A stretch of DNA of 64,000 nucleotides from a virus, in IMG/VR virus record IMGVR_UViG_3300046314_000658; one strand, 5' to 3'. The notes beneath the pieces are model-generated. The model was not told where the DNA came from, did no database searches, and saw only the letters and a program-made list of their open reading frames with translations. The position numbers were made by a program, and so were the translations under genes. Numbering within the stretch: position 1 is the stretch's first letter; every line of letters starts with the position of its first letter. Shown here piece after piece: positions 6,972-39,061 of the stretch.

Positions 6972-7925
6972 ATGAAATTCTCACAATATTTATCTGAAGG
7001 CATTCGAGCAGCAGATTTCGAAAAGGCTGTTGGCACGATTGTTCAATATCTGCAAAAACAACTGGGTACAATGTATCGGTATCCACAGATTGAGCACTAC
7101 AGTGGTTCACAGGGTCAAGGGATTGGGTTGCGATATTTTCTGCAAGATGGCACTAGCTTGCGTTTCAATTGGACTTCAACGTCTGCATCTTCCAAGCTAG
7201 ATTCGATCTCAATTTGGGATGGTTCGTCTCGTCACCCTAATTTCCAGATTCGTGGTATTGGGGATGTGCCACTTGGTCAACTGTCACTCGCAAAGATCCT
7301 CCCAACACTTGCTCAAACTATCAAAAATCCAAAAGTTGGTGAAGTTGAGTTGTCTACACAAGAGTCAATCAGCGTACTGGCTGATTTGGATACCCAACTA
7401 TCCGAGAGCGTGTTGAACGAAGATGCATTCGATGATGTCGTCGGGGCGCTTGAACAAGGTGCTGTATCTGGCTACACATTCTCAAAGATGGGCCGTAACC
7501 AAGAGCGTATCTTCAAAGAGATTCTAGCTGCTCATAAAGACGAGTTTGAAACCAAGGTCGATGGTGCTGGACGTCAACGGTACACATTCACAGGCGAGCT
7601 CGGCGAAATTAGCCGGGATGATATCGTGGGCAATGTAGTTGGCAACCAACAAAAGAGTGGTCGTCTTGGACTATCCGTTTCAGTCGGCGGTAACGAGAGC
7701 ACAACAACAGATGGTGAAGATGCTGCAGCAAAGCAGTTCCCAGGTGCGCCAGCTCGGGTACCGTACGAAGAGCAGTTGGATGATATGAAGTCAATCATCA
7801 ATGCTGTTGTGAAAGGTGCGAGTAACTTCTCTGTGATATTAGGAGCTGGTGGACTTGGTAAATGTGCAAGTTCTGCGGTGTTATTGAATGGATCATTTAA
7901 AAACTGGGAAAAATCCCTCGCCTAA
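6972..7925 (+). CDS. AAA ATPase N-terminal fragment plus 20-aa split-intein IntN
   Basis: Ends ILGAGGLGK|CASSAVLLNGSFKNWEKSLA*; Walker A is cut before its Thr and followed by Cys1 (TGT 7863). Confidence 0.85.
   Translation: MKFSQYLSEGIRAADFEKAVGTIVQYLQKQLGTMYRYPQIEHYSGSQGQGIGLRYFLQDGTSLRFNWTSTSASSKLDSISIWDGSSRHPNFQIRGIGDVPLGQLSLAKILPTLAQTIKNPKVGEVELSTQESISVLADLDTQLSESVLNEDAFDDVVGALEQGAVSGYTFSKMGRNQERIFKEILAAHKDEFETKVDGAGRQRYTFTGELGEISRDDIVGNVVGNQQKSGRLGLSVSVGGNESTTTDGEDAAAKQFPGAPARVPYEEQLDDMKSIINAVVKGASNFSVILGAGGLGKCASSAVLLNGSFKNWEKSLA
7863..7922 (+). other. Split intein N-fragment (atypical, 20 aa)
   Basis: Cys1 directly follows the GK of Walker A; only block A is present. Confidence 0.8.
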
Positions 7926-8005
7926 AATACTTGCAGCCATTATCCATAAATAGTACTATTAATATACAGCAGCTAGTTCGCTGCATATATTTTTAGGGAC
8001 TAACA

Positions 8006-9322
8006 ATGAATGTTACCAACACCAAGCGCAAGAGCAAACACGAGCAACACACTACCGTCATACAGACGATCAACACTCCCGATCAGTTACTCGAATACGC
8101 ATTTGCAAAAGAGTTTCTCAATAGGGGAGATTGGAAGGGTTGGCACCCAGATGTAAAACAGCGTGCATTGCAGCTACTTGAGCTACCAGAGTGTAGTATT
8201 ACGAATTTTAATCTCAAAGTTCGGTTTGATGTACTAAATCCGAATCGCACTGCAAAACCAAATAACGTCGAACATTGGATCAATCGAGGTTGGACCGAAG
8301 CAGATGCAATGCTGCACATCAAAGCTATGCAAAAAGCTCGCAACAATAAAAAACAAGAAATGTTAACCCCCGAATACTGGGTACGAACTGGGTTGACTCT
8401 ACAGGAGGCGCAACAGAAAGCTGATGATTGTAGATTCGGTAATACAGCCAGGCGACCAGAATATTGGATTAAACAAGGTATGTCTGTAGACGAAGCAAAG
8501 ACGAAAGTATCTCAACACCAAAGCGCACACTCTCCTAAAACAGTTGGATATTGGACTGCGCAAGGGTTAACAGATGAACAAGCTACTAATAAAGTGTCAG
8601 AAGTGCAAACCAGTGCAGCAGCAATTGCAAAGCAGAAATGGAAGGATGGATTAATCGACAAAGCCACTCGTAACACCAATCTTGAATATTGGATCAAGAA
8701 AGCAAATGGTGATAAATTGCGAGCAAGAAAGTTGCTACGAGAGCGGCAGAGTACGTTTTCATTAGAAAAGTGTATAGCTACGCATGGAGAATTGAGGGGG
8801 ACCCAAATGTGGGAACAACGACAAGAGAAATGGCAGACTACGATGCAGTCAAAGCCCCCCGAGGAGTTGTTGCGGATATCTAGAGCAAAGCAGGTGCGTG
8901 GGAATGGGTTGCGATATGGTGTGGTATCACAACAGCTGTTCTGGGAGGTATTTAATATCACCCAACCTCTGGGGTATGCTATTTATTTTGCTGAACTTGA
9001 TCAAAAAACGAAAGTAAAAGCCATTCAAGGTAATCATGAATTTGTAATGTTCTGCGATGATGTGGTATATCGTCCGGATTTTTACATACCAGACATTGGC
9101 GTGTGGGTAGAGTTTGATGAGAAACATCACTGGGGGTGTACAGCAGCAAAAGCAAGCGACGTAATTAGAGAGACTAATATTAAACGAGTATTGAAAGATG
9201 TCACATTCATTCGCATCAAAGAAACAGAATTTGCAGACAATCCAGAAGATTGTGTGACGAAAATAGTTGATGTGATCTTAGCAAAACATCTCCAATACGA
9301 AGCAGCTCTCCAACAAGACTAA
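8006..9322 (+). mobile_element. Free-standing homing endonuclease (helical YW..G...EA repeats plus Vsr/PD-(D/E)XK-like domain)
   Basis: Repeats HWINRGWTEADA, YWVRTGLTLQEA, YWIKQGMSVDEA, YWTAQGLTDEQA; C-terminal YRPDFYI...VEFDEKHH. Lies between the intein halves. Confidence 0.8.
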
Positions 9323-9351
9323 ATACACGATACTACACTTCTACTACCACT

Positions 9352-9789
9352 ATGGATACTACTGCATTGAAACTTGAGACCAAATCGTTTGGTGAACTGG
9401 CCGACCTAATTAAGCAACATCTCAATATTACAGAGTTAGAACTGAATAGACTATACGACATTCGCAAGTTCGAGTGGACTGTTCAGGATCATAACGATAC
9501 TCCTATTCCAATTATTGGACTAATTCGCAAGCATAGTAAAGCAATTGCTTTTGAATTCAGCGATGGTAGTGAAATTATTACTTCCACCCACCACCTATTT
9601 GCCACTGACGATAGGTGCGATGTTACATTTGCTGCAGAGCTAGCGGTTGGTGATAGTATTACCAAAATTAGTGGTGAAAAAGTTACAGTAGTATCAGCAA
9701 CTGCGCTACCAGAGCAAGATGTGTACGACATCCAAGTTAAGTCTCACAAGATGTTGTATCGCGATGCAGCTGGTTTTGTGCACCACAAT
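9352..9789 (+). other. Split intein C-fragment (long, 146 aa; +1 Thr)
   Basis: HHN codons at 9781-9789; Thr codon ACT at 9790. Confidence 0.85.
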
Positions 9790-10434
9790 ACTCATACTGT
9801 TGAAGAAACACTTGGAGAACTTGGCTTAGAAGACGGGAATGGATACTTCAAAAACACATCGAGCGGCTCTGCAGCTGGATTGTACAAGACTCTATTCATG
9901 AACCGTACTGGCATTGTGGTGTTAGATGACTGTGATACGATTGTTGCCACACAAGAAGGTCGCAATCTATTGAAGGCTGCACTAGACACCAAAAAGAAAC
10001 GGAAACTCGTCTGGGCAAAAATGGGTTCTTGGTTGTTTGACCCAGCTGATGAAGAGGAGATGGCAAAGGCACAAGACTCCATCGCGGTTGGTGAAGAACC
10101 AGAGATGTTCCCACGATACTTCGACTTTGAAGGTCGTGTGATTATGATTAGCAACTTACCAGCAGAAACACTTGATCCAGATGGTGCACTAGCCACGCGC
10201 GGATTCATCATCACATTAAATCCAACGAAGGATGAAGTGTTTGCATTCATGCGTAAAATTGCACCGAAAATCCCCGTTGAAGGTCGTCAACTAACTGATG
10301 CTGAGCGTAATGAAGTTGTTGATATGCTTGAGAAGCAATCTGGTACCGCCAATATTCGAAAATTAGTTCGAGGTCTCAATATGTGTGCCAGTGGGACCCC
10401 TAATTGGCAAAGAATTGTCGAGCGTTATTGCTAA
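9352..10434 (+). CDS. 146-aa split-intein IntC plus AAA ATPase C-terminal fragment
   Basis: Block B TSTH, block F VYDIQV, block G GFVHHN|T; then THTVEE, Walker B VVLDDCD, NLLKAALD, IMISN. Own TAAATA at 9320-9325. Confidence 0.88.
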   Translation: MDTTALKLETKSFGELADLIKQHLNITELELNRLYDIRKFEWTVQDHNDTPIPIIGLIRKHSKAIAFEFSDGSEIITSTHHLFATDDRCDVTFAAELAVGDSITKISGEKVTVVSATALPEQDVYDIQVKSHKMLYRDAAGFVHHNTHTVEETLGELGLEDGNGYFKNTSSGSAAGLYKTLFMNRTGIVVLDDCDTIVATQEGRNLLKAALDTKKKRKLVWAKMGSWLFDPADEEEMAKAQDSIAVGEEPEMFPRYFDFEGRVIMISNLPAETLDPDGALATRGFIITLNPTKDEVFAFMRKIAPKIPVEGRQLTDAERNEVVDMLEKQSGTANIRKLVRGLNMCASGTPNWQRIVERYC

Positions 10435-10437
10435 AAT

Positions 10438-10463
10438 AAAGGACCAAATGCTGGTCCTTTTTT
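10438..10463 (+). terminator. Intrinsic terminator
   Basis: AAAGGACCA-aatgc-TGGTCCTTT followed by TTT, right after the stop codon. Confidence 0.8.
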
Positions 10464-10495
10464 GTTGCACTAGTATGCAACTATCATAAATAGAA

Positions 10496-10789
10496 GTGCG
10501 AGCCACGATGTACCACCATCCGCTCGCTCTAATGCTAACAAGGAGCAATCAGCATGACTATTTATACAATATATTTGGTGATGAATGTTGTTATGTAGAT
10601 AGCTCAACAATTGCTACCGACAACATAGTTAAGGGTTCTCGCGCAATTATTACACCGTTAGGAAGAGTTGGCAGTGTTGCTATTGCGTCAAAGGCTGCTA
10701 GCTTAAATCCATCAACAATCAACAGGCGTCTTAACAGTCCTAATTATCCCGATTGGTGTTTTGCTAATGAAGAGTTGATACACACCTAA
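10496..10789 (+). pseudogene. Probable homing endonuclease relic (NUMOD1/HTH-like tail only)
   Basis: IITPLGRVGSVAIASKAASLNPSTINRRLNSPNYPDW resembles endonuclease C-terminal DNA-binding modules; no catalytic domain is visible. Confidence 0.45.
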
Positions 10790-10814
10790 ATATGTCAACA
10801 CATACGCTCAATAT

Positions 10815-11420
10815 ATGAAAGTCACCACTGTTTTATCACTACTAGAAGCAAAGGTAGCACCACTGTATCACGGTACAACTGCTGACAGTGCTGAAAAAAT
10901 ACTAGCAACCAACAACCTTACAGCTAGGGCTGAGATTGAACCAAATGCACTCAGGTACATGCGCGGTGCTCGAACTGGTGATAAGTCAGTTAGTTTTAGC
11001 AGAAGCATTAGTGCTGCGCGAGCATTCGCATCAGGAGCGCCACGCAGAACCGGAATTTCCGGTGTTGTATTTGTGATTGATCAAGCTCTACTAAGCAGAG
11101 ACATTGGAAGACGACTCAACCCATATAATGACCTAACTGCATCTAGTAGTACTGCATCCAGAGGAGCAGGTTCGACAGAATATGAGGAGACTGTGGTTGG
11201 CGATGTGCGGAATTTTAACAAATATGTTAGTAAAATTATCGTGTTTGTGCACCCGCAATATAAAGATATGTTAGATCCTGAAATGTTCCCAACACTACTG
11301 AATAACCCAAAAACAATCCTAACAACAAATACTACCATCAAAGACTTGCCAAATGTGTATGATAGATTCGCATCAGCAAAGGAATTGGAATTCCAACAGC
11401 AGCATGACACTGCTAAATAA
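10815..11420 (+). CDS. ADP-ribosyltransferase-fold protein
   Basis: LYHGT, SVSFSR..AxxFA, GVVFVID, EYEE; TAAATA at 10787-10792. Confidence 0.65.
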   Translation: MKVTTVLSLLEAKVAPLYHGTTADSAEKILATNNLTARAEIEPNALRYMRGARTGDKSVSFSRSISAARAFASGAPRRTGISGVVFVIDQALLSRDIGRRLNPYNDLTASSSTASRGAGSTEYEETVVGDVRNFNKYVSKIIVFVHPQYKDMLDPEMFPTLLNNPKTILTTNTTIKDLPNVYDRFASAKELEFQQQHDTAK

Positions 11421-11438
11421 ATCATCAATGGACTTTAT

Positions 11439-13064
11439 ATGCTAGTAAATTTTAGGCACGGTATAGTATCTGCCACGCAAAATGCAACACAACAACCTCG
11501 ATTCTTGCAAATGCAAGGTCAGGTGGTTAAAATAATTGCAACCAACACTCCAGTTGTATTGACAATTGCACACAGGCAATCAAACTACCTAGTTACAATC
11601 GAGCAAGATGTTGATACAGCTTGGGTGGGTGTTAGTGCAGCACTAACTTATCTATATGTAGATATTAACCTAAAGACGGGTGTAGTATCGTACGGGCACA
11701 CAACAACTCCACCTTTGATACAATCAACACTACCAACTAATGCAATTAACGGTCAACACTGGTTTGATCCGAGTATCGACACAATGCGCATCAGAGGGAT
11801 TGGTGCATGGCAAGAGTGTGCTAGATTGTTCGTTGGGACAGTCGTGGGTGGAATTGCAACCTGCTCTCCATTTGGTTCTCAAATCGGAAAAACCGGTAAC
11901 TTTCCAACTGGGAAACTTGCGTTTGATGGTAGTGGAAAGCCAATTTCAAAAAGCACGGGAGAGTTTTGGACAACGGATGATGTGTTTTATGTAAACGGCA
12001 CAATATCTGCACCATATGCATTTGGCACGCAACTACAAGTCGCGTCAACAGCAGAAGTAGTAACTCCAATGTCAGTGGTAGCGTATAGTGGCAATACATT
12101 CAACACAGTGCGACTAGCACAACCTAGCGATACTGGATACGCAACACTTGCTATAGCAATGGCCGGCGTTAGCGCAGGTGAAAAAGTTAGTGTCGTGTGC
12201 AACGGAGTCATTGTTAACCCAGCGTGGGCGTTTGTAAATCCGAATAGCTTAGTTTGGGTAGGCCAAAATGGAGTAATATCAACCACTCCCGACCCTGTTA
12301 ACACATCTCAGCCGATTGGGCGTGTAATAGATGCAAACACTATCGTATTTAACCCTCCGATTAGTGTTAGTGCTGGTACAGGTAGCGGTAGTGGACAGAT
12401 GGGACCAAGAGGACCAGAAGGTGCACAAGGGCCTGCCGGAGCTACTGGATTACCAGGGGCGCAAGGTCCTGCCGGTCCTGCAGGAGCAGATTCTACAGTA
12501 GCAGGTCCTGTGGGACCAACCGGCGCCAATGGTACTGGTGGAGTACGGCGGCAAATCATGTATGTAACGTCAGGGTTGGTCGGGTTCGGATCGATAACAA
12601 CTAGTTGGCCAGAAGTTGATGAATTGTATACTCCTGCTGATAGATTAGTTACATACGACGCATATAGTGGTATGTTTACCTTTTTAAAGGCAGGGTCGTG
12701 GAAAATTACTATGGCAGTTAACTACGGATTTCCGGTTGGTGGAAATCTTCCAATGGGAGCATCTACGTATATTAGCAGGATTGACTACGTTAGTGGCGGC
12801 GCTTACTGGCGGCGCAATGAACATCGGTGTCGATTGATGCTCGACAACACTGCATATTTAAGTAGTGACGTATTAATTGGAGGAATAGATGGGTATGCAG
12901 ACTTCTTTGTCAAAGAGGTTGGGGAAAATTCTCAGTTCCTAATCGAGATGAGGTCTGAAACTGACGTCAATTCAACCACATACAGTAGCAATCCAGTTGG
13001 GTTAACATACTCTGCGCTTGTTGCTTTCGAACTCGTCGATGAATACGCCCCAAACAACGTATAA
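11439..13064 (+). CDS. Virion fibre/structural protein with collagen-like Gly-X-Y repeats
   Basis: [28 protein letters not shown] at about 12400-12540; GQHWFD motif shared with the tail proteins. Confidence 0.75.
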
Positions 13065-13725
13065 TTTAACAGTTGTTACTCACACTAGACTGCATAATCC
13101 GTATCCTAATTTATTGGAGCGGTGTAAGCAGTCTGTTGCAATAGCATTACCACCAAACTCACAGCATCTAATATTAGTCAACAACCCAACAGATGGTGTG
13201 AAGTTTTCAGAGTTCTTTGCGCACTTACGGTATAGTGCCCTACAATACAGTCGGTATATCGCGTTTGTAGATGATGATGATTACATTCATCCCGACTCAT
13301 TAACACTGTGTATGGATGCACTATCACAAACTGGAGCAGGTGCTGCCGTGACAAACGAAGTTATGGTAGATGTTGACGGAAAGCATCTGTCAGCAAACCG
13401 ATATCCTCGGTACTACTGTGGCGTGGGGATGCACCCACGGAACATCCACCACTTAACGGTGTTCAAAAGAGACTTTGTGCAACCAGTTGCGTTAGAGTTA
13501 GCGCTACAGTTTGGCGCTGGTATTGAATGGACGATGAAGGCGTCAGCTTGTCTGACTGGTGGGGCTGTTCACGTTCCGATTGATGGATATTACTGGACAC
13601 AACACGAGAGCAGACCAGGAGCACAACCAAACCTTCGTCAGCAACACGCAAATAAAATTTTACCACTCGGAAACGCTATTAAAAATGCATTCCCGAGTAG
13701 ATTTGGACGAATTCCAACTGTTTAA
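13039..13725 (+). CDS. Glycosyltransferase, family 2 (GT-A fold)
   Basis: LTVVTHT, CKQSV, YIAFVDDDDYI; probable ATG at 13039 overlaps the fibre gene end. Confidence 0.75.
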   Translation: MNTPQTTYNLTVVTHTRLHNPYPNLLERCKQSVAIALPPNSQHLILVNNPTDGVKFSEFFAHLRYSALQYSRYIAFVDDDDYIHPDSLTLCMDALSQTGAGAAVTNEVMVDVDGKHLSANRYPRYYCGVGMHPRNIHHLTVFKRDFVQPVALELALQFGAGIEWTMKASACLTGGAVHVPIDGYYWTQHESRPGAQPNLRQQHANKILPLGNAIKNAFPSRFGRIPTV

Positions 13726-14815: not shown

Positions 14816-14901
14816 ATTTTCCTTAATTATCTCAGTTGCGATAGGGTCTATTATCCTCTGTTTTTACAGATTGACAACAGTTTTTAGATTTATTTTCAAA
14901 T

Positions 14902-15720: not shown

Positions 15721-15745
15721 TTCGGTTCCTTTGGTTGTTGAGATA

Positions 15746-15774
15746 ATTATCTACCCTAATTAAATAAATGTCAA
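15746..15774 (-). promoter_or_regulatory. Sigma70-type early promoter
   Basis: TTGACA-17 nt-GATAAT upstream of the start at 15720. Confidence 0.75.
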
Positions 15775-15778
15775 CAGG

Positions 15779-16351: not shown

Positions 16352-16385
16352 ATTAACTCCGTCTGTACAATTAAACAATGTGTGT

Positions 16386-16413
16386 ATTATACAATCGTTT
16401 ATAGAAAAGTCAA
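16386..16413 (-). promoter_or_regulatory. Sigma70-type early promoter
   Basis: TTGACT-16 nt-TATAAT. Confidence 0.7.
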
Positions 16414-17995: not shown

Positions 17996-20443
17996 TTAGA
18001 CTGAAGTTAGTTTAATGTAATTTTGAATTTGTTCACAAGCTGCCACATAATCTCGTGTACCATATGAGCTGTGGCGAAGTGCTGTATTAACATATGGCAA
18101 TAGTGGAAATTCCAATACCAGCTGTTTATTAAGGTCTGCAACTTCACGATACGCTGTTGCTGCTACAACACTCGCTTCATTGACCTGCTTTGCAATATCG
18201 TGAAGTTGAGCATCAAGAGGAGCGTGAGAAGAGCGGTCAATTGCATTGAGGGTGTTCACCATCAATTTAATCGCGCTATGGTTAGCGGTCGCGTTAGACT
18301 GTGCGGTCGCGTTACAGACGAATGAGCTTACCAAGCGCTTTAACTCATTAACTGTCTTACTCTTCACAGTATCAATTGTTGAGACGGCACATAGTGCAAC
18401 ATTTTGGTTTCCGTAGTTTGAATGCCACTGCAAATGGTACGCTCCAGCAGTGGCAACCCTTACGGCATTTGCATATACCCACGAGCGGATGAGGGTTTCA
18501 AGATTCTGAGCTTGTTGAATAAAGGTTTTCACTTTTTTTACCCCCATTGCGGATGACTTGATCCCAACTAACAGGATTTTATCCGGACCAACTACTTTGG
18601 TTAGGTAGTTCCACAGTTCGGCAAAGTCGTCGGTAATCTCGTTAAACACAACATCTTTAGCACTATTAGTGTATGTAAACTGAGGCACGCCACGAATTTG
18701 TGGAACAAATACTACGTGTTTATACTTGAGACTTTTAATGTACACATCTAGCTGAGCTTCGTCTACTGTGGTCCACTCATTAAGTGCATACCTGTCTGGG
18801 CACTTTGTACTAGTGATACTAGGATTAAAAACTTTGAATGTATCATCAGCACGTGTGATCGTTGAAGGATTGGTACCCTTCTTCGGAGCGGCAGCTAAGG
18901 TAGAGGCATATACAACAGAAACAAAGCTACCTGGAACATTGAATGCTTCCAACAATTCTGTAACAGCGGTGTTGAATCGAACTGTATCAGCAATCTTAAC
19001 TCCACGTGGGGCTGAGATTGAAAACACCTCACCTTTGTGTGTCGCAGATGCGTTGTTGAGATAGTGAAACTTCAACTTTGACGTTCCGCCTTTCGCTTCA
19101 TCAAGCACAACAAAAGTAATCCTTTCACCTGGAATAGAAAACGACAGATTTGTGTTAATACTCTCGGTAACACTTACAGTTACTGTACCATCTGCAGCCA
19201 CGACACGTCTGGGAGTTGAGATGCGCAGTGGGACTGGCTCCATTTTACGACGCAGATTCGATTGTAGTGACAAATCATGCTTCGCAAGTGCTGATTCTAG
19301 TTTGACAGCATCGGTTGGTACGTATGTACCATCGATCGAGATTTCCTTTCCCTTCCACATCAACTTACCACCAGTCGTGTAGGTAATAATACTGCGCAGA
19401 CGATCACCACGCAGAACACGGCAAAATTTAACCACATCCCACATAGTAGGCAACTCGCTAAACTGGTCCTGAATGTGTTTGCCGATACCTTCACCAATCT
19501 TGACCAACTTATCCAGAATAACAGCGACTGTTTGTTCTGTATACTGCAACTCTTCACGAGACGCGCTGAAATCCAATGACCCGATTGGGAAGGTAATGAT
19601 GATTGGCAGTTCCAACAATTTGGTTATCAGGTTAACCTCTTGTAAGCCTGAGAAGCCTGAGAAACGCTCGCGGAACGCATTAGAAGCAAGTACTGTAGAT
19701 TTTGCGAGTGGGTACGGTACGTTACCTTGGATAGCAAGCGCAGTCGACAGAGGACCCCCTGACTTTGCAACAAACCAGTCAGTTCCACCAAACTCACGCT
19801 CAACATGACGTAGTGTGGTACGACCTTGCAAGCCACCCAATATTTTAGGTGGAGTTGAACCCCAAGTTGTGAAGAATGATTGCACTTTGGAGGTGAACTT
19901 TTCAAAGTCGACCTGTTTTACAGCGAAGTTCACCTCCAGACCAGACGGCTCATCAGAGTCTGAGACATCAAGCAGAGCAATCGATGGGATGCCATCTGCA
20001 GTTTTAAAGGCAGAATACACCAACTTCAGACCAGTGTGCCAGCTCGTAATCGTGTAGTTGCTTGTATATGAGAATGGTGACTTTGAACCAAGCCCCAATG
20101 CACCAACTACATCATTCGATTTAGTTTTCGTACTCTCGAAGAATTTAGTATAGATGCTGTCAATTTGTTCGGCAGACATGCCAGTACCATAATCGCGAAT
20201 CGCAAAAAACGGTTCGAGTTGGTTGGGTAGATGAATGTCGAATGGTTTGTCTGGGTTACCATTAGTGACATGAGAATCTGACGCATTGCACGCCAGTTCA
20301 CGCACCACAGCGAGAATGGGGTCCTTGTACAACATTGATGATAAAATATCAAATGTCTTACCTGTCAACGCAATCGAGTATTGCTTGGATTGCAATCCAC
20401 TACTCATAGTGGTAGCCGTACCTGAGGATGAGAGAGGAATCAT
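17996..20443 (-). CDS. rIIA: rIIA-like protein (GHKL ATPase N-terminus)
   Basis: LYKDPILAVVRELACNASD, IRDYGTGM, GALGLGSKSPF, FSASREEL; adjacent to rIIB. Confidence 0.9.
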   Translation of the reverse strand: MIPLSSSGTATTMSSGLQSKQYSIALTGKTFDILSSMLYKDPILAVVRELACNASDSHVTNGNPDKPFDIHLPNQLEPFFAIRDYGTGMSAEQIDSIYTKFFESTKTKSNDVVGALGLGSKSPFSYTSNYTITSWHTGLKLVYSAFKTADGIPSIALLDVSDSDEPSGLEVNFAVKQVDFEKFTSKVQSFFTTWGSTPPKILGGLQGRTTLRHVEREFGGTDWFVAKSGGPLSTALAIQGNVPYPLAKSTVLASNAFRERFSGFSGLQEVNLITKLLELPIIITFPIGSLDFSASREELQYTEQTVAVILDKLVKIGEGIGKHIQDQFSELPTMWDVVKFCRVLRGDRLRSIITYTTGGKLMWKGKEISIDGTYVPTDAVKLESALAKHDLSLQSNLRRKMEPVPLRISTPRRVVAADGTVTVSVTESINTNLSFSIPGERITFVVLDEAKGGTSKLKFHYLNNASATHKGEVFSISAPRGVKIADTVRFNTAVTELLEAFNVPGSFVSVVYASTLAAAPKKGTNPSTITRADDTFKVFNPSITSTKCPDRYALNEWTTVDEAQLDVYIKSLKYKHVVFVPQIRGVPQFTYTNSAKDVVFNEITDDFAELWNYLTKVVGPDKILLVGIKSSAMGVKKVKTFIQQAQNLETLIRSWVYANAVRVATAGAYHLQWHSNYGNQNVALCAVSTIDTVKSKTVNELKRLVSSFVCNATAQSNATANHSAIKLMVNTLNAIDRSSHAPLDAQLHDIAKQVNEASVVAATAYREVADLNKQLVLEFPLLPYVNTALRHSSYGTRDYVAACEQIQNYIKLTSV

Positions 20444-21571: not shown

Positions 21572-22096
21572 TCAGTCTCCCAGCAAATCTTCATTCCATT
21601 CGCGGTGACCAATTCTGTATGCCATATTACTTTCAGTTTCTCTGACAGAAACTTTATAGCACCAAATTCGAGCAGCTTCTCCACTGCCCCAGTAGTCTGG
21701 AATGAACACTCCGTTGATATATTTGTACAACATATCAGCAATTCCTTCACACCCAAGACGTGGAAGCTCAATTACCTTTGCAATCCCTCGCTTATTTGCT
21801 TCTCGATACCAATCAATTTCAGGATCACTAGAACTAACCAATAGAGTATGATCGAAGTTATTTTGGAGAAACTCCTTCAGGGGGCGCAAAGAGCCGTAGT
21901 CGACGCTCCAGTTCCTACAATCGAGATCATTTGTTCCGAAGTAAAACTTCATCGAGAAGGCATATCCGTGAATCTTATTGCAACCTGGAATGTTACCTGG
22001 TTTATCATCAGCGAGATACTGACGATATGCTACTGGAAACGCGTCAACATATTCTTTGGTTGAGGTGAAGCGATACGTAATTGGTGGATAATCCAT
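21572..22096 (-). CDS. queD: 6-carboxy-tetrahydropterin synthase / PTPS
   Basis: CNKIHGY, VDYGSL, FDHTLLV, VRETESN; T-fold motifs; near folE. Confidence 0.85.
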   Translation of the reverse strand: MDYPPITYRFTSTKEYVDAFPVAYRQYLADDKPGNIPGCNKIHGYAFSMKFYFGTNDLDCRNWSVDYGSLRPLKEFLQNNFDHTLLVSSSDPEIDWYREANKRGIAKVIELPRLGCEGIADMLYKYINGVFIPDYWGSGEAARIWCYKVSVRETESNMAYRIGHREWNEDLLGD

Positions 22097-22255: not shown

Positions 22256-23950
22256 TCAACAATCTGGCAACCATTCATATACACTTGTACCACAGTCCCA
22301 GAATCTATCAAACTTATTCTCTAACATATTCTCGTATAGTGTTTTTTGCTCGTCGAACTTTGGAACAACATCTGCTATATTTGCTTTTGTAAATTTATTA
22401 GGAGAACACAAAAATGGTGTCTTAGATGCTGTGCTAAAATAGTAACCAACTGGTGGAGTAGTGCGAACTAGTTCAAACCCACTTTCCCTCGCATACTGTT
22501 CAGGTAGTCGTCTATCAGTCTGGTGAATAACTTTCACAATGCTATGTTGCTTACAGAAAGATGATATTAACTGTCGCAATAAGCCTGGAACATAAGTGTC
22601 TGTTGCATATGAAAAATTATCAATTCTGACTATATTATTATCAATACCACTCAACGCGAGTGCAGCGATTAACTGCCGATTAACTCGAACTCCATAGAAA
22701 TATTTAGATTGATTAGAAATTCCAGTTATAGCGTTCTCTGTAAAAAACCAATCAGCATCTCTTCTGGATATTGGATATGCAGCACAGTCATTTACGTCAT
22801 ACTTGATTGGAGATAACTCCAATGCACGCTTAATTAAACTCTCAGTTGCAGAACGGTGGTAATACCAATCTGGTTCTAATATTTGGAGCAGTGTGTACCC
22901 ACTTTTCTCACACAATTGGGTTTTTAGTAGATGTTTATTTCTACCAACGTGAGATTCCCGATGCCAATATAACCCGTTGTATTCAATTGCTATGTGTTTA
23001 GTTGGTATTACTATGTCCAATTCATATGGATGTATAAGTGATCGATTGGATACTTCACACGGAACAAGCGAGTTTACAAAATTGGCAATTTCAATTTCAG
23101 CAGATGAGCGGAATTGATCCTTGCGAATTGAGATCCTGTGCTGATTCAAATACTTTAAAACTGTTGTATCCGATACCTCTCCGTGTAACAAGTATGTAGC
23201 GATGTGAGTGGAAGATAATGTTTGATTTGTATACGCATTTGTCATCCACTCAACATTTTCCAATTTCGCCATAACTTCAAGTGATATGTGTCTCTGAGAC
23301 AGCGTTCTACCACCATTTTCTAATCTAGTGTTAGCTTCAATTGCATCCTGTATGTCAACACTTTGAAATGGAAAATCATGACCGTAACGAGATTGTCTTG
23401 TTGCAAGCTGTTTTGCTTTAACATCGGGTAATAATGCAGTAGATGTTACACCGTACTTTTCAAAAGTATTGTCTCGTACTTTCTGTTGAATTTTATCACT
23501 TTGAAATGGAGTTGCAGACCCGTATCGTTCTATACAGGTTGCGTGTTGCTTTGCACGAATAGTAGGAGATAGCCCAGCAGATTTTACCCCATACTTTTTA
23601 ATCATAGTCGCTTCTTTACGCGACTGCGTTTCAGGAGAGGCTTGTGCACACTTACGACCACAAAATGGTTTATACCCCTGCATTCTGCTAGTGAATTTAA
23701 CTGAAAGTTGATTGCAATGCTTACATTTTACAAGTTCGGTGACACCGTGTTCTAATGCATGTATGCGTTGGTCATTGCGTGCATGCGGGCCGAGGAATGC
23801 TGTTCTATCAATGTACGCGACCCACCAATCTGGCAACACTGGATGGTGTCGAGTCCAATGCTCTACAAGTTTTCCATTTATACGCCCGTCTGGTTTAAGA
23901 ATTCCAGAAAGTTTTAAGTGATCCATAAGCTGCTGGTCAGTGAATATCAT
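22256..23950 (-). mobile_element. Free-standing homing endonuclease (T..xxYG repeats plus PD-(D/E)XK domain) between folE and queD
   Basis: TMIKKYGV, TCIERYGS, TFEKYGV repeats; YELDIVIP..IAIEYNGLYWH; C-terminal WDCG. Confidence 0.75.
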
Positions 23951-24019: not shown

Positions 24020-24718
24020 TCAACTTGCTAGTTTATCTCGAGCAATTGCCAGAAATTCTTGTCGAACGTACGGATTATTGACAAACTTGCCACTCATCGC
24101 GCACGTAACAGTATCAGCTGCAGTGTCTTTTGCACCACGTGTTGACATACACAAGTGAGCCATTGAAGCAAACACTGCAACATCATCGGACTTGGTGATA
24201 AACTTTATTGCTTCTAAGATCTGGTGTGTCAATCGTTCCTGCACTTGAGGTCGGGCGGAAAAGAAACTAACAACCCGACTAACTTTTGATAATCCTAACA
24301 CACGCTCGTTGGGAATATAAGCTACTACTACTGCGGGTTTGTTTAAACCACCTGCAGGAATTATACTTAAAAGGTGATGTTCGCACTGAGACACCGCAGA
24401 ACATGCGATGTTTACAAACTCATCAGGCGCCGACATTTTGTTATCTACAGTGGTGCACTTTGGGAAATTATTGTAATCCAAGCCCCACATAAAGTCATTG
24501 ACCCACATTTTACCAACACGATTAGGGGTATCAATCAAACTGTCATCAGTCAAATCTAACCCCAACGCCTCAAGCATTGTTCTTGTAGATGCGGCGATAA
24601 TATCAATTTGCTCTTGTTTAGACAGTTTTTGCTCAATCATTGGAGTCTCGAGCCCTAGTGAAATTAAGTGTTCGTGGACTTGTTTGCCGAGTTCGGGATT
24701 TGCTTTGCTCATTTTCAT
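24020..24718 (-). CDS. folE: GTP cyclohydrolase I
   Basis: DTPNRV, SQCEHHL, GLSKVSR, RPQVQERLT, HLCMSTRG. Confidence 0.92.
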   Translation of the reverse strand: MKMSKANPELGKQVHEHLISLGLETPMIEQKLSKQEQIDIIAASTRTMLEALGLDLTDDSLIDTPNRVGKMWVNDFMWGLDYNNFPKCTTVDNKMSAPDEFVNIACSAVSQCEHHLLSIIPAGGLNKPAVVVAYIPNERVLGLSKVSRVVSFFSARPQVQERLTHQILEAIKFITKSDDVAVFASMAHLCMSTRGAKDTAADTVTCAMSGKFVNNPYVRQEFLAIARDKLAS

Positions 24719-29640: not shown

Positions 29641-29718
29641 CTGTATCCTTGCAATAGTAACTATTTAGGCGTCAATTGAATTGGTTATCCTATTACTTCC
29701 CGATTACCGACTAGATCG

Positions 29719-30873: not shown

Positions 30874-30905
30874 CTGGTATAACGAAGTATGAGTGTGGTA
30901 AGTAT

Positions 30906-33476: not shown

Positions 33477-33535
33477 GTTGAATAATCCGTGGCGACATTA
33501 GCGTGTATTTAGCTCCATTCGCCACGCGATCTATA

Positions 33536-34108
33536 TTATGTAGCCCAAACATCATCCCAAGAGCCCGACAATGCACCTTTGGCATAGTCAGTAACTTTAC
33601 TCTCGAAGAAGTTTCCGTGTGTGGGAGCGCCAACCATTTCTTCTACCCAGGGTAATGGATTTTTCTTGACTTTGAAAATACCCTTCATACCAGCAGAAAT
33701 CAATCGTCGGTCAGCGATGTAGCGAATGTACTGCTTGACTTCTGCTGCTGTAAGATTGCGCATTGTGCCACCACAAACACCAAACGCTAAATCAATGAAT
33801 GCGTCTTCCAATTTAACCATTGTTTCACAGATCGAGTAGATCTCACTCTTCAACTCATCATCCCACACATCCTTATGCTCTGAGAGAAATGTCTTGAACA
33901 GTTTGGTCATTGAAGAGCAGTGACAATTACCTGTTACAGACACTTTGTCGTTGTGCTTAATAACAAACGCACCAGTCGGCACTGTCAAACAATACACATC
34001 CGTTGCCGGAGATTCTATGTTAGTTATTGTAACGTTGTTGACCGATTCCACCGCAGGAGTGCGGCCGGCAAACATTTGTAAAATATTTAAAATATCTTCA
34101 TTATTCAT
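33536..34108 (-). CDS. nrdB: Split-intein IntC (61 aa) plus RNR class Ia beta subunit C-fragment
   Basis: VYCLTVPTGAFVIKHNDKVSVTGN|CHCSS; YIRYIADRRL, NPLPW, NFFE..VTDY; SD AAGGA. Confidence 0.9.
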   Translation of the reverse strand: MNNEDILNILQMFAGRTPAVESVNNVTITNIESPATDVYCLTVPTGAFVIKHNDKVSVTGNCHCSSMTKLFKTFLSEHKDVWDDELKSEIYSICETMVKLEDAFIDLAFGVCGGTMRNLTAAEVKQYIRYIADRRLISAGMKGIFKVKKNPLPWVEEMVGAPTHGNFFESKVTDYAKGALSGSWDDVWAT

Positions 34109-34991
34109 TTTTTGGGTTTCCTTTTTTCCAATTAATTATCCGTCCGGGTTTCCACCCTTCAGGGATTTGCTCATCTTTTGTTATACATTTTGATACGCTA
34201 CCGTCTGTGATCCACCGTTTACTATGCTTTTGAGTCATACCCAACCTAAATCCATCGGGAGGAGTCTCTCCGGGTTGTAGTTTAAGATTGACAATTCCGT
34301 CTGTATAGCACACGACTCCGCGTATATTTTTATTGTTAGCGATTTTCTGTTTTGATTCCTCGGAGTGAGCAACGAATCGAGGTATATCTGAACCTACACC
34401 TCGTTCCCATCCTGGCGGAATTGGTCGAATAGCGTTGTGTGTCACAGTTATCCGACCATCGGTAATACGAATATATTTTCCACGCCTGGTTCTACCTGCT
34501 TGTTTGATATTTTCTAACACATTTCCTACGTGGACCCGTCCGACATTGTTCGGAATATGTCCCTTTGCGGCTCTGATTTTTGCTGCAGTCGATATATTTT
34601 GTTTGTGCTCATCGGTGAAATTTAAAGAACCGTTTAATCGCTTGGTTGCCACTGATTTCAGGGCAATTGCACTTCTTTCCCCTCTGGAGTACTTTGCAGT
34701 GGTAAACCCGCCAGTTCCCCCCAGTGCAATATTGAACGTATTTTCATCGAGGATAAAGTTAATATCGACCAGTTCTTGTTCCTTTGCATATGCTTCTTCT
34801 GCAGTAAGAAATATAAACAACGTCTCTCGTTTAAACATATGCTCGCTGTATTTCTCGATTGCTCGGTTCAATAACAATCCCGACCCCAAATACCCATCGA
34901 ATTCAAAAGGGGGGAGGCGTTGGCTATGTACTCCGATGTAAACTTTACCTGTCGGAATACATGTAGTTTGATATACAATATGATAATTCAT
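34101..34991 (-). mobile_element. GIY-YIG (Seg-like) homing endonuclease between the nrdB halves
   Basis: IVYQTT..GKVYIGVH..YLGSG, FNIALGG; NUMOD3-like HSEESKQKI; xTDG repeats. Confidence 0.85.
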
Positions 34992-35041
34992 ATAGTTAGT
35001 TGGATTGTTACAAACCTATTTATACTAATCCAAGTAACTAT
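34992..35041 (-). promoter_or_regulatory. Hairpin occluding the endonuclease start region, with late promoter TATAAATA in its loop
   Basis: Arms 34992-35006 and 35027-35041 are 14/15 complementary; TATAAATA at 35017-35024. Confidence 0.75.
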
Positions 35042-36132
35042 CGTAATGAAAGTCGTGTCGCTTCATATAGCTGTAGAAATTCCTCAGCCCAATTGCTATC
35101 GATTGCATCAAAAAGCGGGACTATCCAAGATAGATCCGCTTCTCCTCGAGCAGACAATTCGCATAATTCTTTTTGCTTTTCTGTTAGGTGCTTTAGTGGG
35201 CCTTGTTTTTTACCAGATAGTATCAGACCGAAATCAATATCATTGGAATGAACATCTTTTGCTAATTTTTCAACAGGTTCTCCGTGCTGTTGACCAATCA
35301 TCCGATGATTAGGAGATGTTACCTGAGAAATTGCTGGACCGTCAAATTGAATTAAATTATCTACTTGTTTGTGTACCAACCCAGTTGGGGAAGCAAATTG
35401 AGTACGTTGCGTTATCGGATCATATGTTAGCACAGAATCAATCAGCTGCACTGCTTCGATTGGTTTCCAACCAGCTGCAGTTAAAACTTCTGTCCCTGGT
35501 ACCAGGCATTCCTCATCGATAATGCTCCAAGAAATAATTTGACCAAGTGACTTCATCAAGCCGTTGCGAGGTAAGTTTAACAACATCACAAATGAGCTGA
35601 ACAACTGCAAACCTTCAGTGAATAAGCTGAATACTGCAATCTTTTTAGCGATAGCGCGCGGTGTTGGTACAGTATCTGATTTAAAATCGTCAAAGTCGAA
35701 GATGTAGTTGTGTTTATCAACCATCTCTTTGTACTGCATAAATTCATTATACGTCGTCTCAGGTAGACCAATTGTCTCAATCAAATGAGAGTAAGCAGCG
35801 ACGTGCAGTGATTCGCGGGCTGCAAACGATGTAAGCATCATTCGCACTTCAGGTGTCTTGAAAACTGGAAGGTAATGATCAACATACCCTTCACTAACAT
35901 CCAAGTCACCTTGCGTGAAAAACCGAAGAATGTGAGTCAGGAAGTTTTTTTCTTCCTTTGTCAACTTTTTCTTCCAATCTTTGACATCCTCTTGCATAGG
36001 TAATTCAAGGTGGAGCCAATGAGACTGCTCACTCAGCAACCAGGATTCGTAACACCATGGATAATCGAATGGCCGAAATGTTTTACGAGTTGAGTGTAGT
36101 AATGATTTCTTTTTTGTTGTTTGCGCGTTCAT
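35038..36132 (-). CDS. nrdB: RNR class Ia beta subunit N-fragment plus split-intein IntN (156 aa)
   Basis: FFTQGDLDV, ESLHVAAYS, EGLQLFSSF, SIIDEE|CLVPGTEVLT; block B TSPNHRM. Cys1 at 35508; start MNAQTT at 36132. Confidence 0.9.
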   Translation of the reverse strand: MNAQTTKKKSLLHSTRKTFRPFDYPWCYESWLLSEQSHWLHLELPMQEDVKDWKKKLTKEEKNFLTHILRFFTQGDLDVSEGYVDHYLPVFKTPEVRMMLTSFAARESLHVAAYSHLIETIGLPETTYNEFMQYKEMVDKHNYIFDFDDFKSDTVPTPRAIAKKIAVFSLFTEGLQLFSSFVMLLNLPRNGLMKSLGQIISWSIIDEECLVPGTEVLTAAGWKPIEAVQLIDSVLTYDPITQRTQFASPTGLVHKQVDNLIQFDGPAISQVTSPNHRMIGQQHGEPVEKLAKDVHSNDIDFGLILSGKKQGPLKHLTEKQKELCELSARGEADLSWIVPLFDAIDSNWAEEFLQLYEATRLSLR

Positions 36133-36136
36133 TGAG

Positions 36137-36781
36137 TTAGTCCTTTTTATATTTTGTCGTGCCAAGGTAAAAATCAATACCTGGCTGCTCGAGCGAGCGT
36201 TTGTTTATAGTGCCGTTGGTCCACCACTTTTTACCACGGACATTTGTATTTCCCATAGAGCCAAGTGCTTGCTGTTGGCGATATTCATCAGTTATGTTAC
36301 GCAGCGTCCCATACGTATTACCTTGCATTTTTCTCGATCGAAGTTGCCTAACGTGAGGTAAATCATTTGCTGGAGATGTTTGGAAGTTGTGTCGCCCTTC
36401 GTCATACAACCGTCGGGCAGCCTTTGACAGTGCAGGCTTGCGTTTTTCACAAATCTGTTGAACATCAACTGCTGTCAACAGAATTCCCTTCGCTACATTG
36501 CGATTGAGCAACATTTCTGTAAATTGAACAAAACCATACTTTCGAAGGAGACGCTTCAACAACCTCGCTTCATACTCCCGAGCGTCAACTCGACATTTGA
36601 TTCGTATTATTTTGAAACTATCAACACCATCCTGCTCAATGAGTTGCTTCACTCGTTTAGATGATGTGAAATAACTCACCCAAAAATTTGCAGGCGAGCT
36701 ACTAGCACCATACTGCGACCCAATGTAGTACGCTCCGGATGGAATATGTTTGATCTTGTAAAAATACGGTTCCAATGTCAA
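36137..36781 (-). mobile_element. GIY-YIG-like homing endonuclease between nrdA and nrdB
   Basis: YFYKIKHIPSGAYYIGSQY, YFTSS, LLNRN, KWWTNG; ATGA overlap with the nrdA stop. Confidence 0.75.
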
Positions 36782-37860
36782 CCTTCACAGCTCGAACAAC
36801 TATTATCAATCAGTGATATCATATTCATATCTTCAATCTTCTCCCGCTGTACCTTTGTTGACAACTTTGATGCCTTACCAAGTTTTTCACTGCGGCAGTA
36901 GTACAACCCCTTGAGGCCTTGCTTCCAAGCCATGAAGTGGACAGCATGTAGGTACTTCACATTAACGTCAGGCGCAAAGAATGTGTTAACTGATTGTCCT
37001 TGATCAATAAATTCCTGGCGTTTTGCAGCATGATCGATGATCCACATTTGGTCAATTTCAAGAGCTGTTTTGAATACATCCTTTGTATTCTGATCCATCC
37101 ACTTAATATGCTGAACTGAGCCTTCATTCGCAAGAATGTCGCGCCACACATCATCGTAATCATCACCAGTTTGCTCACAATGTGCCTTAATAATTTTATC
37201 AAGATAGCGATTGCGGTTCGTGTATGCACCAGACAGAGTATCTTGACGATACACATTAGCTTTATACGGCTCAATAGATGGTGAACAGTTTCCCATTAAA
37301 ATTGAAGAGCTAGCATTGGGCGCGCAGGCCATTACGTGTGTAAAACGACGTTGAGGCGCATTCAACCCATTCGCCTCAATATAATCAAGATTGCTACCAC
37401 GCTCGGCACCAAGTTCAGCATTAGCGATATCAAGCTGCGTACGAATGTGCTTAAAGATGCGGATATTTGCACCAGTTGCCATTGCGCTCTCGAATGGAAT
37501 CATATGTTTTTGGAAGTATGAGTGCAATCCAAGTAAGCCAACACCAATTGAGCGTTCACGCATTGCAGAGAATCTCGCACGAGAGATCGTATCAGGTGCG
37601 TCATCAATGAACTTTTGCAGAACATTATCAAGCATTTCTGCGACGTCTTTTAGGAATAGCTTATCATTCTTCCATTCGTCAAAATACTCTGCATTAACTG
37701 AACTCAAACAACACACAGCAGTACGGTTTTCATCAGTGACCAAGTGAATTTCATTACAGTTGTGAACAAGCACGTTGTTTGCAAAAAATGATTCCGTGTC
37801 AGGTACCGAGATATCATACACAACTGTTGTTGGTACTTGAATTTTTCTTATCTTTAACAT
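36778..37860 (-). CDS. nrdA: Split-intein IntC (34 aa) plus RNR class Ia alpha subunit C-fragment
   Basis: MLKIRKI..VYDISV..FFANNVLVHN|CNEI; AVCCLSS, APNASSS, DQGQS, LYYCR, terminal CSSCEG. Confidence 0.92.
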   Translation of the reverse strand: MLKIRKIQVPTTVVYDISVPDTESFFANNVLVHNCNEIHLVTDENRTAVCCLSSVNAEYFDEWKNDKLFLKDVAEMLDNVLQKFIDDAPDTISRARFSAMRERSIGVGLLGLHSYFQKHMIPFESAMATGANIRIFKHIRTQLDIANAELGAERGSNLDYIEANGLNAPQRRFTHVMACAPNASSSILMGNCSPSIEPYKANVYRQDTLSGAYTNRNRYLDKIIKAHCEQTGDDYDDVWRDILANEGSVQHIKWMDQNTKDVFKTALEIDQMWIIDHAAKRQEFIDQGQSVNTFFAPDVNVKYLHAVHFMAWKQGLKGLYYCRSEKLGKASKLSTKVQREKIEDMNMISLIDNSCSSCEG

Positions 37861-37906
37861 TTTGGTTTTCCTAATTTAAGCGTTGAGATTGATGAACTCT
37901 ATAGTA

Positions 37907-39061
37907 TCAAATTTCCAATAATTCGTCAGTATCGGTTAAATGCTGAGCTTGAACAAAACCTCTGTTTCGAGTATAAATTTGGTGTTCAGGTGTACACTTA
38001 ATTACGTTGCCGGTTGGAGTTTCAATCTCATACAGCTCAGTAGCAGTTCCAGTTGCAGCTGCTGCTGTTACATCAGACCAGCCTTGCTGATCATTTACAG
38101 AGGTTTTAACCTTGACTCCCGGTAGATAACCTAGTTGAAAATTATTAACAAATTCTTCAAGATTGCATTTTGATACTTTGCCATCCATCGTCATTATTTC
38201 AATTTCTGTATCCCCAACCAAGCACAAGTTCGACCCTTTTACAGTCAGTCCGAGCTTCTTTTGATGTTCTGGAAGTGCGTTATTAACTGTATCGATGAAA
38301 TTGAGGTACGGTTCACCTGTTTCCATGCGAAGAATCAATAACTTTTGCCACAGAGCCTTTGCAGATACTACTTCACGAACTTCTTTTGACGCTGGATCAA
38401 TCAATTCCCACGAATCATCAACAGTTGGATCAGCCATCGATTTCTCGATCAACTCCATAAACTTATCGCTAATATTAATAGCATTATGTAAGTTAAGGCA
38501 GCGCGTATTTTGATCACCAGTTGGTTTACGCATCTCCAAGAATTCGATTACATCTGGGTGACTAATATCCAAGTACATCGCATATGACCCACGTCGCGTA
38601 TGTCCTTGTTTATACGCCATAGATGATGCGTCGTATGTTTTCATATGAGGCATGATGCCAACTGACTTATCATCAACAGCACGAATACCAACGTGAACAC
38701 CAACGCCACCACCCATCATCGAAAGCCAATTTACCTCAGATAGTGTATCTACCAAACCTGTAGATGAATCAGGCAAAAAGCTAAGGAAGCAGCTTACACC
38801 AAGTCCACGCTTGTTTCGACCATATGCTAATATAGGGGTTGAGTAGCTCAACCAATGCTTGCTGGAGTAGTCATACAAACGTTGAGCATGTGTTGGATTA
38901 GATGCGAATGCGTTACTAACGTACGCAAACCGTTCCTGGGGTGAAACTTCATGTTCCATCATATACGAATCTTTAAGTCGCTCGAGGCCGAGACTATCAA
39001 ACAAACTATCCCTCGAATAGTCAACTGTAATGCCGTGTAGTGTGGTTGGGAGATCTATCAC
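37907..39061 (-). CDS. nrdA: RNR class Ia alpha subunit N-fragment (no ATP cone) plus split-intein IntN (105 aa)
   Basis: STPIL, VSCFL, GGGVG, RRGSYA, TGEPY, GSNL|CLVGDTEI; block B CTPEH. Cys1 at 38224. Confidence 0.92.
   Translation of the reverse strand: MIDLPTTLHGITVDYSRDSLFDSLGLERLKDSYMMEHEVSPQERFAYVSNAFASNPTHAQRLYDYSSKHWLSYSTPILAYGRNKRGLGVSCFLSFLPDSSTGLVDTLSEVNWLSMMGGGVGVHVGIRAVDDKSVGIMPHMKTYDASSMAYKQGHTRRGSYAMYLDISHPDVIEFLEMRKPTGDQNTRCLNLHNAINISDKFMELIEKSMADPTVDDSWELIDPASKEVREVVSAKALWQKLLILRMETGEPYLNFIDTVNNALPEHQKKLGLTVKGSNLCLVGDTEIEIMTMDGKVSKCNLEEFVNNFQLGYLPGVKVKTSVNDQQGWSDVTAAAATGTATELYEIETPTGNVIKCTPEHQIYTRNRGFVQAQHLTDTDELLEI

Follow-up and report, generated by a model that had tools for sequence, protein, structure and literature searches.

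Three genes of one phage, encoding a P-loop ATPase and the NrdA and NrdB subunits of ribonucleotide reductase (RNR), are each divided into two open reading frames (ORFs) that carry the N- and C-terminal fragments of a split intein (IntN and IntC) at the break. All three lie in the window, that is, the whole stretch that we analysed (64,000 nucleotides of IMG/VR virus record IMGVR_UViG_3300046314_000658). We consider it very probable that the three genes were fractured by independent intein/endonuclease insertions and that their products are rejoined by protein trans-splicing. The initial annotation had described three split-intein pairs, and we reproduced all six ORFs, their junctions, the IntN/IntC sizes (20/146, 105/34 and 156/61 residues for the ATPase, NrdA and NrdB, respectively) and the predicted spliced lengths of 511, 605 and 337 residues; relatives with an empty insertion site show the predicted junctions. 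Three split genes are far more than expected by chance. The anatomy of the loci, the exact junctions, the empty-site alleles, homology and conservation, and the predicted pairing of the NrdB fragments were established from sequence or models. The pieces of the three genes, in window coordinates, are:

6972–7862, forward strand: ATPase N-extein, 297 residues, the last being the Walker A Lys; collinear with uninterrupted homologs on contigs L002–L004
7863–7925, forward strand: putative ATPase IntN, 20 residues beginning with Cys1, plus stop codon (direct reading)
8006–9322, forward strand: free-standing putative endonuclease gene, 438 residues (weak match to Pfam PF18741; homologs with PF04480 and PF18741)
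9352–9789, forward strand: putative ATPase IntC, 146 residues with blocks B, F and G, ending HHN (AlphaFold2 and Foldseek, homologs)
9790–10434, forward strand: ATPase C-extein, 214 residues beginning with the Walker A Thr (+1), plus stop codon (uninterrupted homologs)
38225–39061, reverse strand: NrdA N-extein, 279 residues (Pfam PF00317 and PF02867)
37907–38224, reverse strand: putative NrdA IntN, 105 residues with Cys1 and TxxH, plus stop codon (NrdJ-1 homology)
37759–37860, reverse strand: putative NrdA IntC, 34 residues, ending HN (same split in contig L008)
36778–37758, reverse strand: NrdA C-extein, 326 residues beginning with the thiyl-radical Cys (+1), plus stop codon (Pfam, direct reading)
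35509–36132, reverse strand: NrdB N-extein, 208 residues (Pfam PF00268; alignment to uninterrupted NrdB)
35038–35508, reverse strand: putative NrdB IntN, 156 residues with Cys1, an SxxH-R-M block B and ~55 extra helical residues, plus stop codon (PDB 6ZGQ)
34101–34991, reverse strand: putative GIY-YIG homing endonuclease gene between the NrdB halves, 296 residues (phrog_314, E=6e-36)
33926–34108, reverse strand: putative NrdB IntC, 61 residues with an N-terminal helix, a block-F Cys and a Thr-Gly-Asn end (residues matching AceL NrdHF)
33536–33925, reverse strand: NrdB C-extein, 129 residues beginning with Cys-His, plus stop codon (Pfam, uninterrupted NrdB)

The insertion into the ATPase gene could be delimited exactly. 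The N-terminal ORF (6972–7925, 317 residues) runs to the Walker A Gly-Lys and continues into a Cys-initiated tail of 20 residues, while the C-terminal ORF (9352–10434, 360 residues) presents, after His-His-Asn, a Thr and the Walker B-containing ATPase body. Joining the two at Walker A (GK/T) gives the predicted protein of 511 residues. Three IMG/VR contigs (L002–L004) encode an uninterrupted ATPase of 511–513 residues with 87–90% identity that is continuous across this junction, and DNA homology to these empty-site alleles ends at window base 7862 and restarts at 9787, the exact ends of an inserted stretch made up of IntN, the endonuclease gene and IntC. The N-terminal ORF, the endonuclease ORF and the C-terminal ORF occupy three different frames. 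The ATPase belongs to phrog_1250, a family with no assigned function, matches AAA_16 weakly, and is adjoined by a DnaB-like helicase gene.

In the case of NrdA, the two ORFs (39061–37907 and 37860–36778) break at the thiyl-radical Cys and are separated by 46 bp from the IntN stop to IntC, without an endonuclease gene; their predicted spliced product has 605 residues. The intein has Cys1, a Thr-x-x-His block B, a terminal His-Asn, Cys+1 and a split of ~100/35, all of them class 1 features, and its IntN matches that of NrdJ-1 (PDB 8UBS) with E=3e-12. The end of IntN is acidic and the start of IntC basic, a charge polarity between the fragments that has been described for NrdJ-1 and NrdA-2 (Dassa, London, Stoddard, Schueler-Furman & Pietrokovski, 2009; PMC2677866). 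By these residues and its homology we class it as a canonical class 1 split intein of the NrdA/NrdJ-1 type, which is already described. It resembles NrdJ-1 in IntN homology, in the canonical 105/35-type split and in charge polarity; unlike NrdJ-1, its host is a class I NrdA and no endonuclease gene remains. One contig (L010, 4064–6901) encodes a contiguous NrdA of 945 residues with a large intein at the same Asn-Leu/Cys site; this intein appears to end in Gly-Gln instead of His-Asn and may have a C-terminal Gln. Pelagiphage NrdA matches over residues 2–360 were considered as a shared IntC and rejected, since the N-terminal alignment was spurious and the gene is an uninterrupted NrdA of 584 residues.

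The NrdB ORFs (36132–35038 and 34108–33536; predicted spliced product, 337 residues) break inside the second iron-ligand ExxH motif, the His of the Cys-His that opens the C-extein being an iron ligand. Six related contigs carry an uninterrupted NrdB with D-E-T-[Q/H]-H at the intein site. The NrdB IntN matches the AceL NrdHF intein (PDB 6ZGQ) with E=5e-14, or 1.8e-15 with flanks, and IntC alone gave no meaningful match in the PDB sequence search. A word-based search with IntN recovered only the protein of the window itself; its relatives were found by pattern scans. Weak similarity to the first 70 residues of IntN (30–34% identity) was seen in two further viral contigs (L016, 6001–6207; L017, 6001–6207), of which one is a giant-virus metagenome-assembled genome.

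The same fractures recur in relatives. In L008, a 7.3-kb viral contig from another sample, NrdA and NrdB are split at the same residues as in the window; a 200-residue GIY-YIG gene lies inside nrdB and no endonuclease gene inside nrdA. Proteins of L008 and the window share 42–68% identity and synonymous sites are saturated, and nonsynonymous divergence (dN) is 0.29–0.60 for the intein pieces and 0.29–0.43 for the exteins. As the values for inteins are close to those for exteins at saturated synonymous sites, we conclude that the intein fragments are under long-term purifying selection. In a further contig, L015, NrdB is likewise split and has these extra residues too, but there is no endonuclease gene. 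A split ATPase with a homologous endonuclease gene (41–87% identity) was also found in L012/L014, L013, L018, L019 and L020, including contigs of 221 kb (L012), 47 kb (L014) and 320 kb (L018). The presence of the same splits on other contigs indicates inherited fractured genes, not assembly errors. Uninterrupted RNR alleles, counting NrdB and NrdA together, occur in L005–L007, L009, L011 and L015. We found no near-identical DNA in the phage collection, and the records of L002–L004 gave no RNR match, which is uninformative because these records are fragments.

The suggestion that the loci stand at different stages of fracture holds when relatives are compared, although it does not amount to a temporal series in any single genome. 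NrdB was found split with an endonuclease gene of 296 residues (window), with one of 200 residues (L008) and with none (L015). For NrdA, L010 has a large contiguous intein, the window and L008 a split one that lacks an endonuclease gene, and L015 no intein.

We propose that mobile intein/homing-endonuclease elements inserted independently into three genes of a single large phage and fractured each of them. Every one of these genes would then be translated as a pair of half-proteins, whose intein parts come together and join the exteins through protein trans-splicing. Splicing would thereby restore the Walker A loop in the ATPase, the loop with the thiyl-radical Cys in NrdA and, in NrdB, the iron site at the second ExxH. 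Four primary translation products would be required for an active RNR. The ATPase intein would be a P-loop-homing element with nearly the whole Hint fold on IntC and a Vsr/DUF559-like endonuclease gene alongside; the NrdA intein, a class 1 element with a 105/34 split that has presumably lost its endonuclease gene; and the NrdB intein, an element with a GIY-YIG gene between the halves in which a divided extra helical module may enlarge the IntN/IntC interface. That the three genes are rejoined by trans-splicing and that RNR is built from four polypeptides had already been put forward from the sequence, and both points draw support from the empty sites, the same splits in relatives, the conserved residues and the homology. 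Homologs of the NrdA and NrdB inteins have been shown to trans-splice (NrdJ-1, PDB 8UBS; AceL NrdHF, PDB 6ZGQ), and a direct reading shows that the exteins retain intact RNR catalytic residues (N-x-C-x-E, YY, the C-terminal Cys pair and E-x-x-H with the Tyr). Pfam detected no further inteins in the other window ORFs of at least 150 residues.

A full HMMER search with the 146-residue ATPase IntC matched 72 representative clusters. In about 55 of the 72, an IntC-like piece lies at the extreme N-terminus and ends in His-His-Asn at residue 131–149, directly followed by Thr or Ser and the normal post-Walker-A sequence of diverse NTPases. From a reading of the extein starts, made without a family library, the sequences suggest ClpA/B-like, AAA+/FtsH-like, ABC and SNF2-like exteins as well as this ATPase family. 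About 10 clusters are contiguous, with Gly-Lys/Cys followed by two short strands, a variable linker of 10–35 residues and then the conserved part. These homologies place the ATPase intein, by its sequence, in a large existing family of P-loop inteins, a membership that the initial annotation had overlooked, as it had the kinship of the NrdB intein with AceL NrdHF.

In the AlphaFold2 model of a contiguous homolog, P0008, strands β1 and β2 are followed by a linker consisting of an extra helix and a low-confidence loop, and the strand and helix after the linker correspond to the start of the window IntC. It follows from the position of this linker that the natural break of the ATPase intein lies directly after strand β2 and before helix α1, i.e. 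at the S1 position. The intein is thus probably of the atypically split S1 type, as judged from the model; in the window, IntN carries block A only, with blocks B, F and G on IntC. The model of the window IntC (mean per-residue confidence, pLDDT, 92.9) shows a Hint fold without the first strands. In a Foldseek comparison with the PDB (E<=0.001), the matches listed were all inteins except for three bacterial intein-like (BIL) domains, and among them gp41-1 ranked first, VidaL 15th (22% identity) and the Cat intein 21st.

Natural atypically split inteins have IntN fragments of 15–37 residues (VidaL, PDB 6VGV; PolB16 OarG; AceL-TerL; GOS-TerL; PMC13014065). The ATPase intein resembles VidaL and PolB16 in the S1 split after strand β2, the very short IntN and a Hint fold mostly on IntC. 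Unlike in those systems, the host is a P-loop ATPase (phrog_1250) in which the +1 residue is the Walker A Thr, and the match to VidaL is structural only, phmmer showing no relation between VidaL and the ATPase IntC. IntN has 20 residues in the window, 16 in L020, 14 in L012 and 13 in L013; the 13–14-residue fragments of the relatives are shorter than the cited record of 15. Most of these IntN fragments share a Leu-x-Gly-x-Phe/Val core.

The endonuclease encoded within the ATPase gene gave a sub-threshold match to PF18741 (Pfam, E=1e-3) and no meaningful match in the PDB sequence search; its homologs carry PF04480 (DUF559) and PF18741, which hints weakly at a Vsr/DUF559-like C-terminal nuclease. 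The nuclease domain is preceded by about five N-terminal tandem repeats of ~25 residues each with a Tyr-Trp ... Gly ... Glu-Ala pattern, kept in the L012 homolog, which may form a modular DNA-binding array.

A comparison of L012 and L013 showed that the two contigs are 98–99.6% identical in DNA on both flanks and encode identical IntC-ATPase-C proteins, whereas the stretch that comprises IntN, counted from its opening codon, and the whole endonuclease gene (L012, 2299–3674) is present as different alleles with ~66% identity over a short part only. This exchange implies that the short IntN and the endonuclease gene move together and that one IntC must serve different IntN fragments. It fits homing with co-conversion and suggests that IntN variation is tolerated within the ATPase intein family. 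In L012, two extra reverse-strand genes (3761–4924) lie between the endonuclease gene and IntC.

We infer that the three co-resident pairs are likely to be orthogonal, because their families are unrelated and their split sites (20/146, 105/34 and 156/61) structurally incompatible. No significant similarity was found between any two of the three inteins (best E=0.027), which by sequence comparison come from three unrelated families. It could be instead that the pairs splice without being fully orthogonal, either through cross-reaction or because one IntC is shared by several IntN alleles. The identical IntC of L012 and L013 with clearly different IntN fragments of 14 and 13 residues suggests tolerance of short partners and speaks for this alternative, to which we give a minor share of the probability, and the title of one paper points to cross-reactivity of an atypical split intein (PMC3443213); the missing similarity among the three inteins speaks against it, and non-cognate pairs would lack or duplicate core strands. 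The exchange between L012 and L013 has no bearing on cross-talk with the two RNR inteins.

The NrdB intein is, by its sequence, a homolog of AceL NrdHF at the RNR beta-subunit ExxH site. AceL NrdHF (PDB 6ZGQ), the first natural split intein of class 3, comes from a phage-like contig of Antarctic origin; it interrupts an RNR beta-subunit gene whose two halves flank a GIY-YIG gene, and its splicing in vitro is efficient (Hoffmann et al, 2020; PMC7891396). The two inteins share the S-x-x-H-R-M block B, the Cys at C2:4 and the T-G-N end, and the two His residues that are usual elsewhere are missing from both. The window agrees with L008 and L015 in this respect: the Ser and His of block B with the following Arg-Met, the C2:4 Cys with a Pro three residues on and the Thr-Gly-Asn are present in all of them, and both usual His residues are absent from the intein end. 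At the Trp-Cys-Thr (WCT) positions of class 3 inteins, Cys C2:4 and Thr C1:5 are conserved and N3:12 is Met, not Trp, a substitution also found in AceL NrdHF. Introducing a His at the GN position of AceL NrdHF abolished its activity (PMC7891396), and the GN ending of the NrdB intein in place of HN is explained by its kinship with this split class 3 intein.

The differences between the two concern the nucleophile, the site and the size. AceL NrdHF has Ala1 and Ser+1, whereas the window, L008 and L015 have Cys1, which aligns with that Ala1, and Cys+1. The site is ...D-E/S-M-H in AceL NrdHF and ...D-E-E/C-H in the window, one residue downstream with the E-x-x-H spacing kept; the fragments measure 98/48 residues in the former and 156/61 in the latter, i.e. 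~55 and ~13 residues longer, and the host gene in the window is an nrdB without NrdH fusion. As Cys1 is present, the intein lacks the defining feature of class 3, namely the absence of an N-terminal nucleophile. Its chemistry may be that of class 1, class 3 or both. Position-1 Cys and the AceL-type class 3 catalytic set are kept together in three diverged lineages, and we tentatively raise the idea, which we hold to be less likely than not, that the intein is a class 1/class 3 hybrid or intermediate in which either nucleophile is usable and the divided helical module acts as an affinity-raising zipper.

A two-chain model of the NrdB IntN and IntC scored 0.92, the best of three controls reaching 0.01; the score mark applied is attained by 58 out of 80 complexes with a solved structure and by 2 out of 110 mismatched pairs, counts that calibrate this pair only roughly since it was modelled with its own three-row alignments. 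Runs agreed in at least 95% of contacts, with a partner pLDDT of at least 82. The contacts of lowest error joined the last extra helix of IntN (chain residues 142–149) to the N-terminal helix of IntC (6–14), and in the model the extra segments look like one helical module cut in two between IntN and IntC. This module may have descended from a nested endonuclease domain of older date and may now add to the interface.

Another explanation to be weighed is that at least one of the pairs no longer splices and represents a decaying remnant, the halves being held together non-covalently, as in the split NrdA of Aeh1, or the gene being dead. Non-covalent assembly of an endonuclease-fractured NrdA is documented (PMC2677866, PMC3045599), and several observations weigh against splicing at all three loci. 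The ATPase IntN is short, variable and poorly conserved among relatives, and the identical IntC with different IntN in L012 and L013 could reflect relaxed constraint instead of promiscuous pairing; there are no obvious Shine-Dalgarno sequences before the ATPase halves; and the NrdB IntC ends in GN, without the penultimate His. The NrdB pairing model, in turn, may pass from likeness or memory only, a 6ZGQ-like complex having been solved. However, Cys1, the block B His, the terminal Asn and the +1 Cys or Thr are all conserved despite saturated synonymous sites, the inteins interrupt Walker A, the loop of the thiyl-radical Cys and the di-iron site, places at which unspliced assemblies are unlikely to work, and GN is native to the active and efficiently splicing homolog AceL NrdHF. 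We therefore regard the loss of splicing as improbable. Sequencing or assembly frameshifts in contiguous inteins, or joining at the RNA level by intron splicing or translational bypass, for which the distance of only 46 bp between the NrdA halves could be cited, can practically be dismissed, because independent contigs of other samples have these stops and restarts as well (L008, L012–L015, L018–L020), complete endonuclease ORFs occupy two of the gaps, the halves lie in different frames with their own start codons and stops, and neither the window nor the gaps gave any Rfam match, group I and II introns included, even at E<=1.

Comparison with the fractured genes of environmental phages described by Dassa et al (2009; PMC2677866) places the three loci in a known context. 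That study reported seven fractured NrdA loci (NrdA-1 to NrdA-7) whose insertion site immediately precedes the thiyl-radical Cys, endonuclease genes (GIY-YIG or Vsr-like) standing free between the split halves, and a gp41-7 locus without endonuclease gene. It also described a late-promoter hairpin with TATAAATA before the endonuclease start and an overlap of the endonuclease 3' end with the IntC start. In the same way, all three window genes consist of two ORFs with IntN and IntC at a site that is continuous in homologs; an endonuclease gene lies between the halves of the ATPase (Vsr/DUF559-like) and of NrdB (GIY-YIG); and the NrdA site is that of NrdA-1 to NrdA-7, with a 46-bp gap that lacks an endonuclease gene as in gp41-7. 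The NrdB endonuclease gene has both the hairpin and the overlap, its 3' end overlapping the IntC start by 8 nucleotides:

34992–35046, reverse strand: predicted RNA hairpin whose loop holds TATAAATA and in which the region of the nrdB-N stop pairs with that of the endonuclease start (folding)
47462–48106, forward strand: gp55-like late sigma factor gene

The hairpin has a minimum free energy of -17.5 kcal/mol (z = -4.0) and none of 200 shuffles was as good; the ATPase endonuclease leader, with z = -1.5, shows no folding advantage over shuffled sequence. As TATAAATA is not enriched in the window (2 found, 3.2 expected), only the hairpin copy is meaningful. T4-style late regulation in this phage is part of the explanation that we favour.

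The environmental loci came from short metagenomic fragments and included no NrdB case, only an unknown gene beside nrdB (PMC2677866), whereas the window unites three loci, both RNR subunits among them, in a single contiguous stretch of phage DNA. The three intein types have each been described before; their co-occurrence and several details are new. The literature that we searched, with incomplete coverage, held no description of a phage with three split inteins, of two RNR subunits both split and dependent on trans-splicing, of an IntN and endonuclease cassette exchanged against an identical IntC, of an AceL-NrdHF-type intein that has Cys1 and divides a helical module between its fragments, or of a natural IntN as short as 13–14 residues.

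The phage that carries these genes is probably a jumbo phage, since CheckV puts the 70.6-kb contig behind the related L002 at 26% completeness and some relatives come from contigs as long as 221 and 320 kb. Other features of the window are:

17996–20443, reverse strand: rIIA homolog
22256–23950, reverse strand: homing-endonuclease-like gene, 564 residues (phrog_3339, E=4e-68; DUF7487, weak PF18741 match)
36137–36781, reverse strand: free-standing GIY-YIG-like gene between nrdA-C and nrdB-N, 214 residues (phrog_314, E=1e-5)
55539–62900, forward strand: virion protein of 2453 residues

The 564-residue gene lies between a PTPS/QueD-like gene (21572–22096) and a GTP cyclohydrolase I gene (24020–24718); it appears to be free-standing and fractures no gene. 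The GIY-YIG-like gene at 36137–36781 lies outside any intein, with a TTG start that overlaps the nrdA stop codon, in what we take to be the position of mobE in T4-type phages; L008 has a thioredoxin-like gene in its place. Similar short leaders (Met-Lys/Arg-hydrophobic ... Leu-x-Glu) were seen at the ATPase gene (6972), at the gene at 10815 and its neighbours, and in L002 (3–683 and 706–2109).

Split inteins are working protein-ligation tools, and orthogonal sets and very short N-terminal fragments are in demand. The window offers three co-resident pairs of three different architectures, from which selection has presumably kept cross-reaction away, together with a large P-loop intein family with natural N-terminal fragments of only 13–20 residues. 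At an atypical split, the mobile unit can be IntN plus the endonuclease gene, exchanged against an unchanged IntC. An essential two-subunit enzyme would stay under selection in two diverged phages with both of its subunits dependent on trans-splicing. The NrdB intein would give a direct route to the relation between class 3 and class 1 chemistry, and this question, along with the resource for intein engineering, is where the main value of these loci lies.

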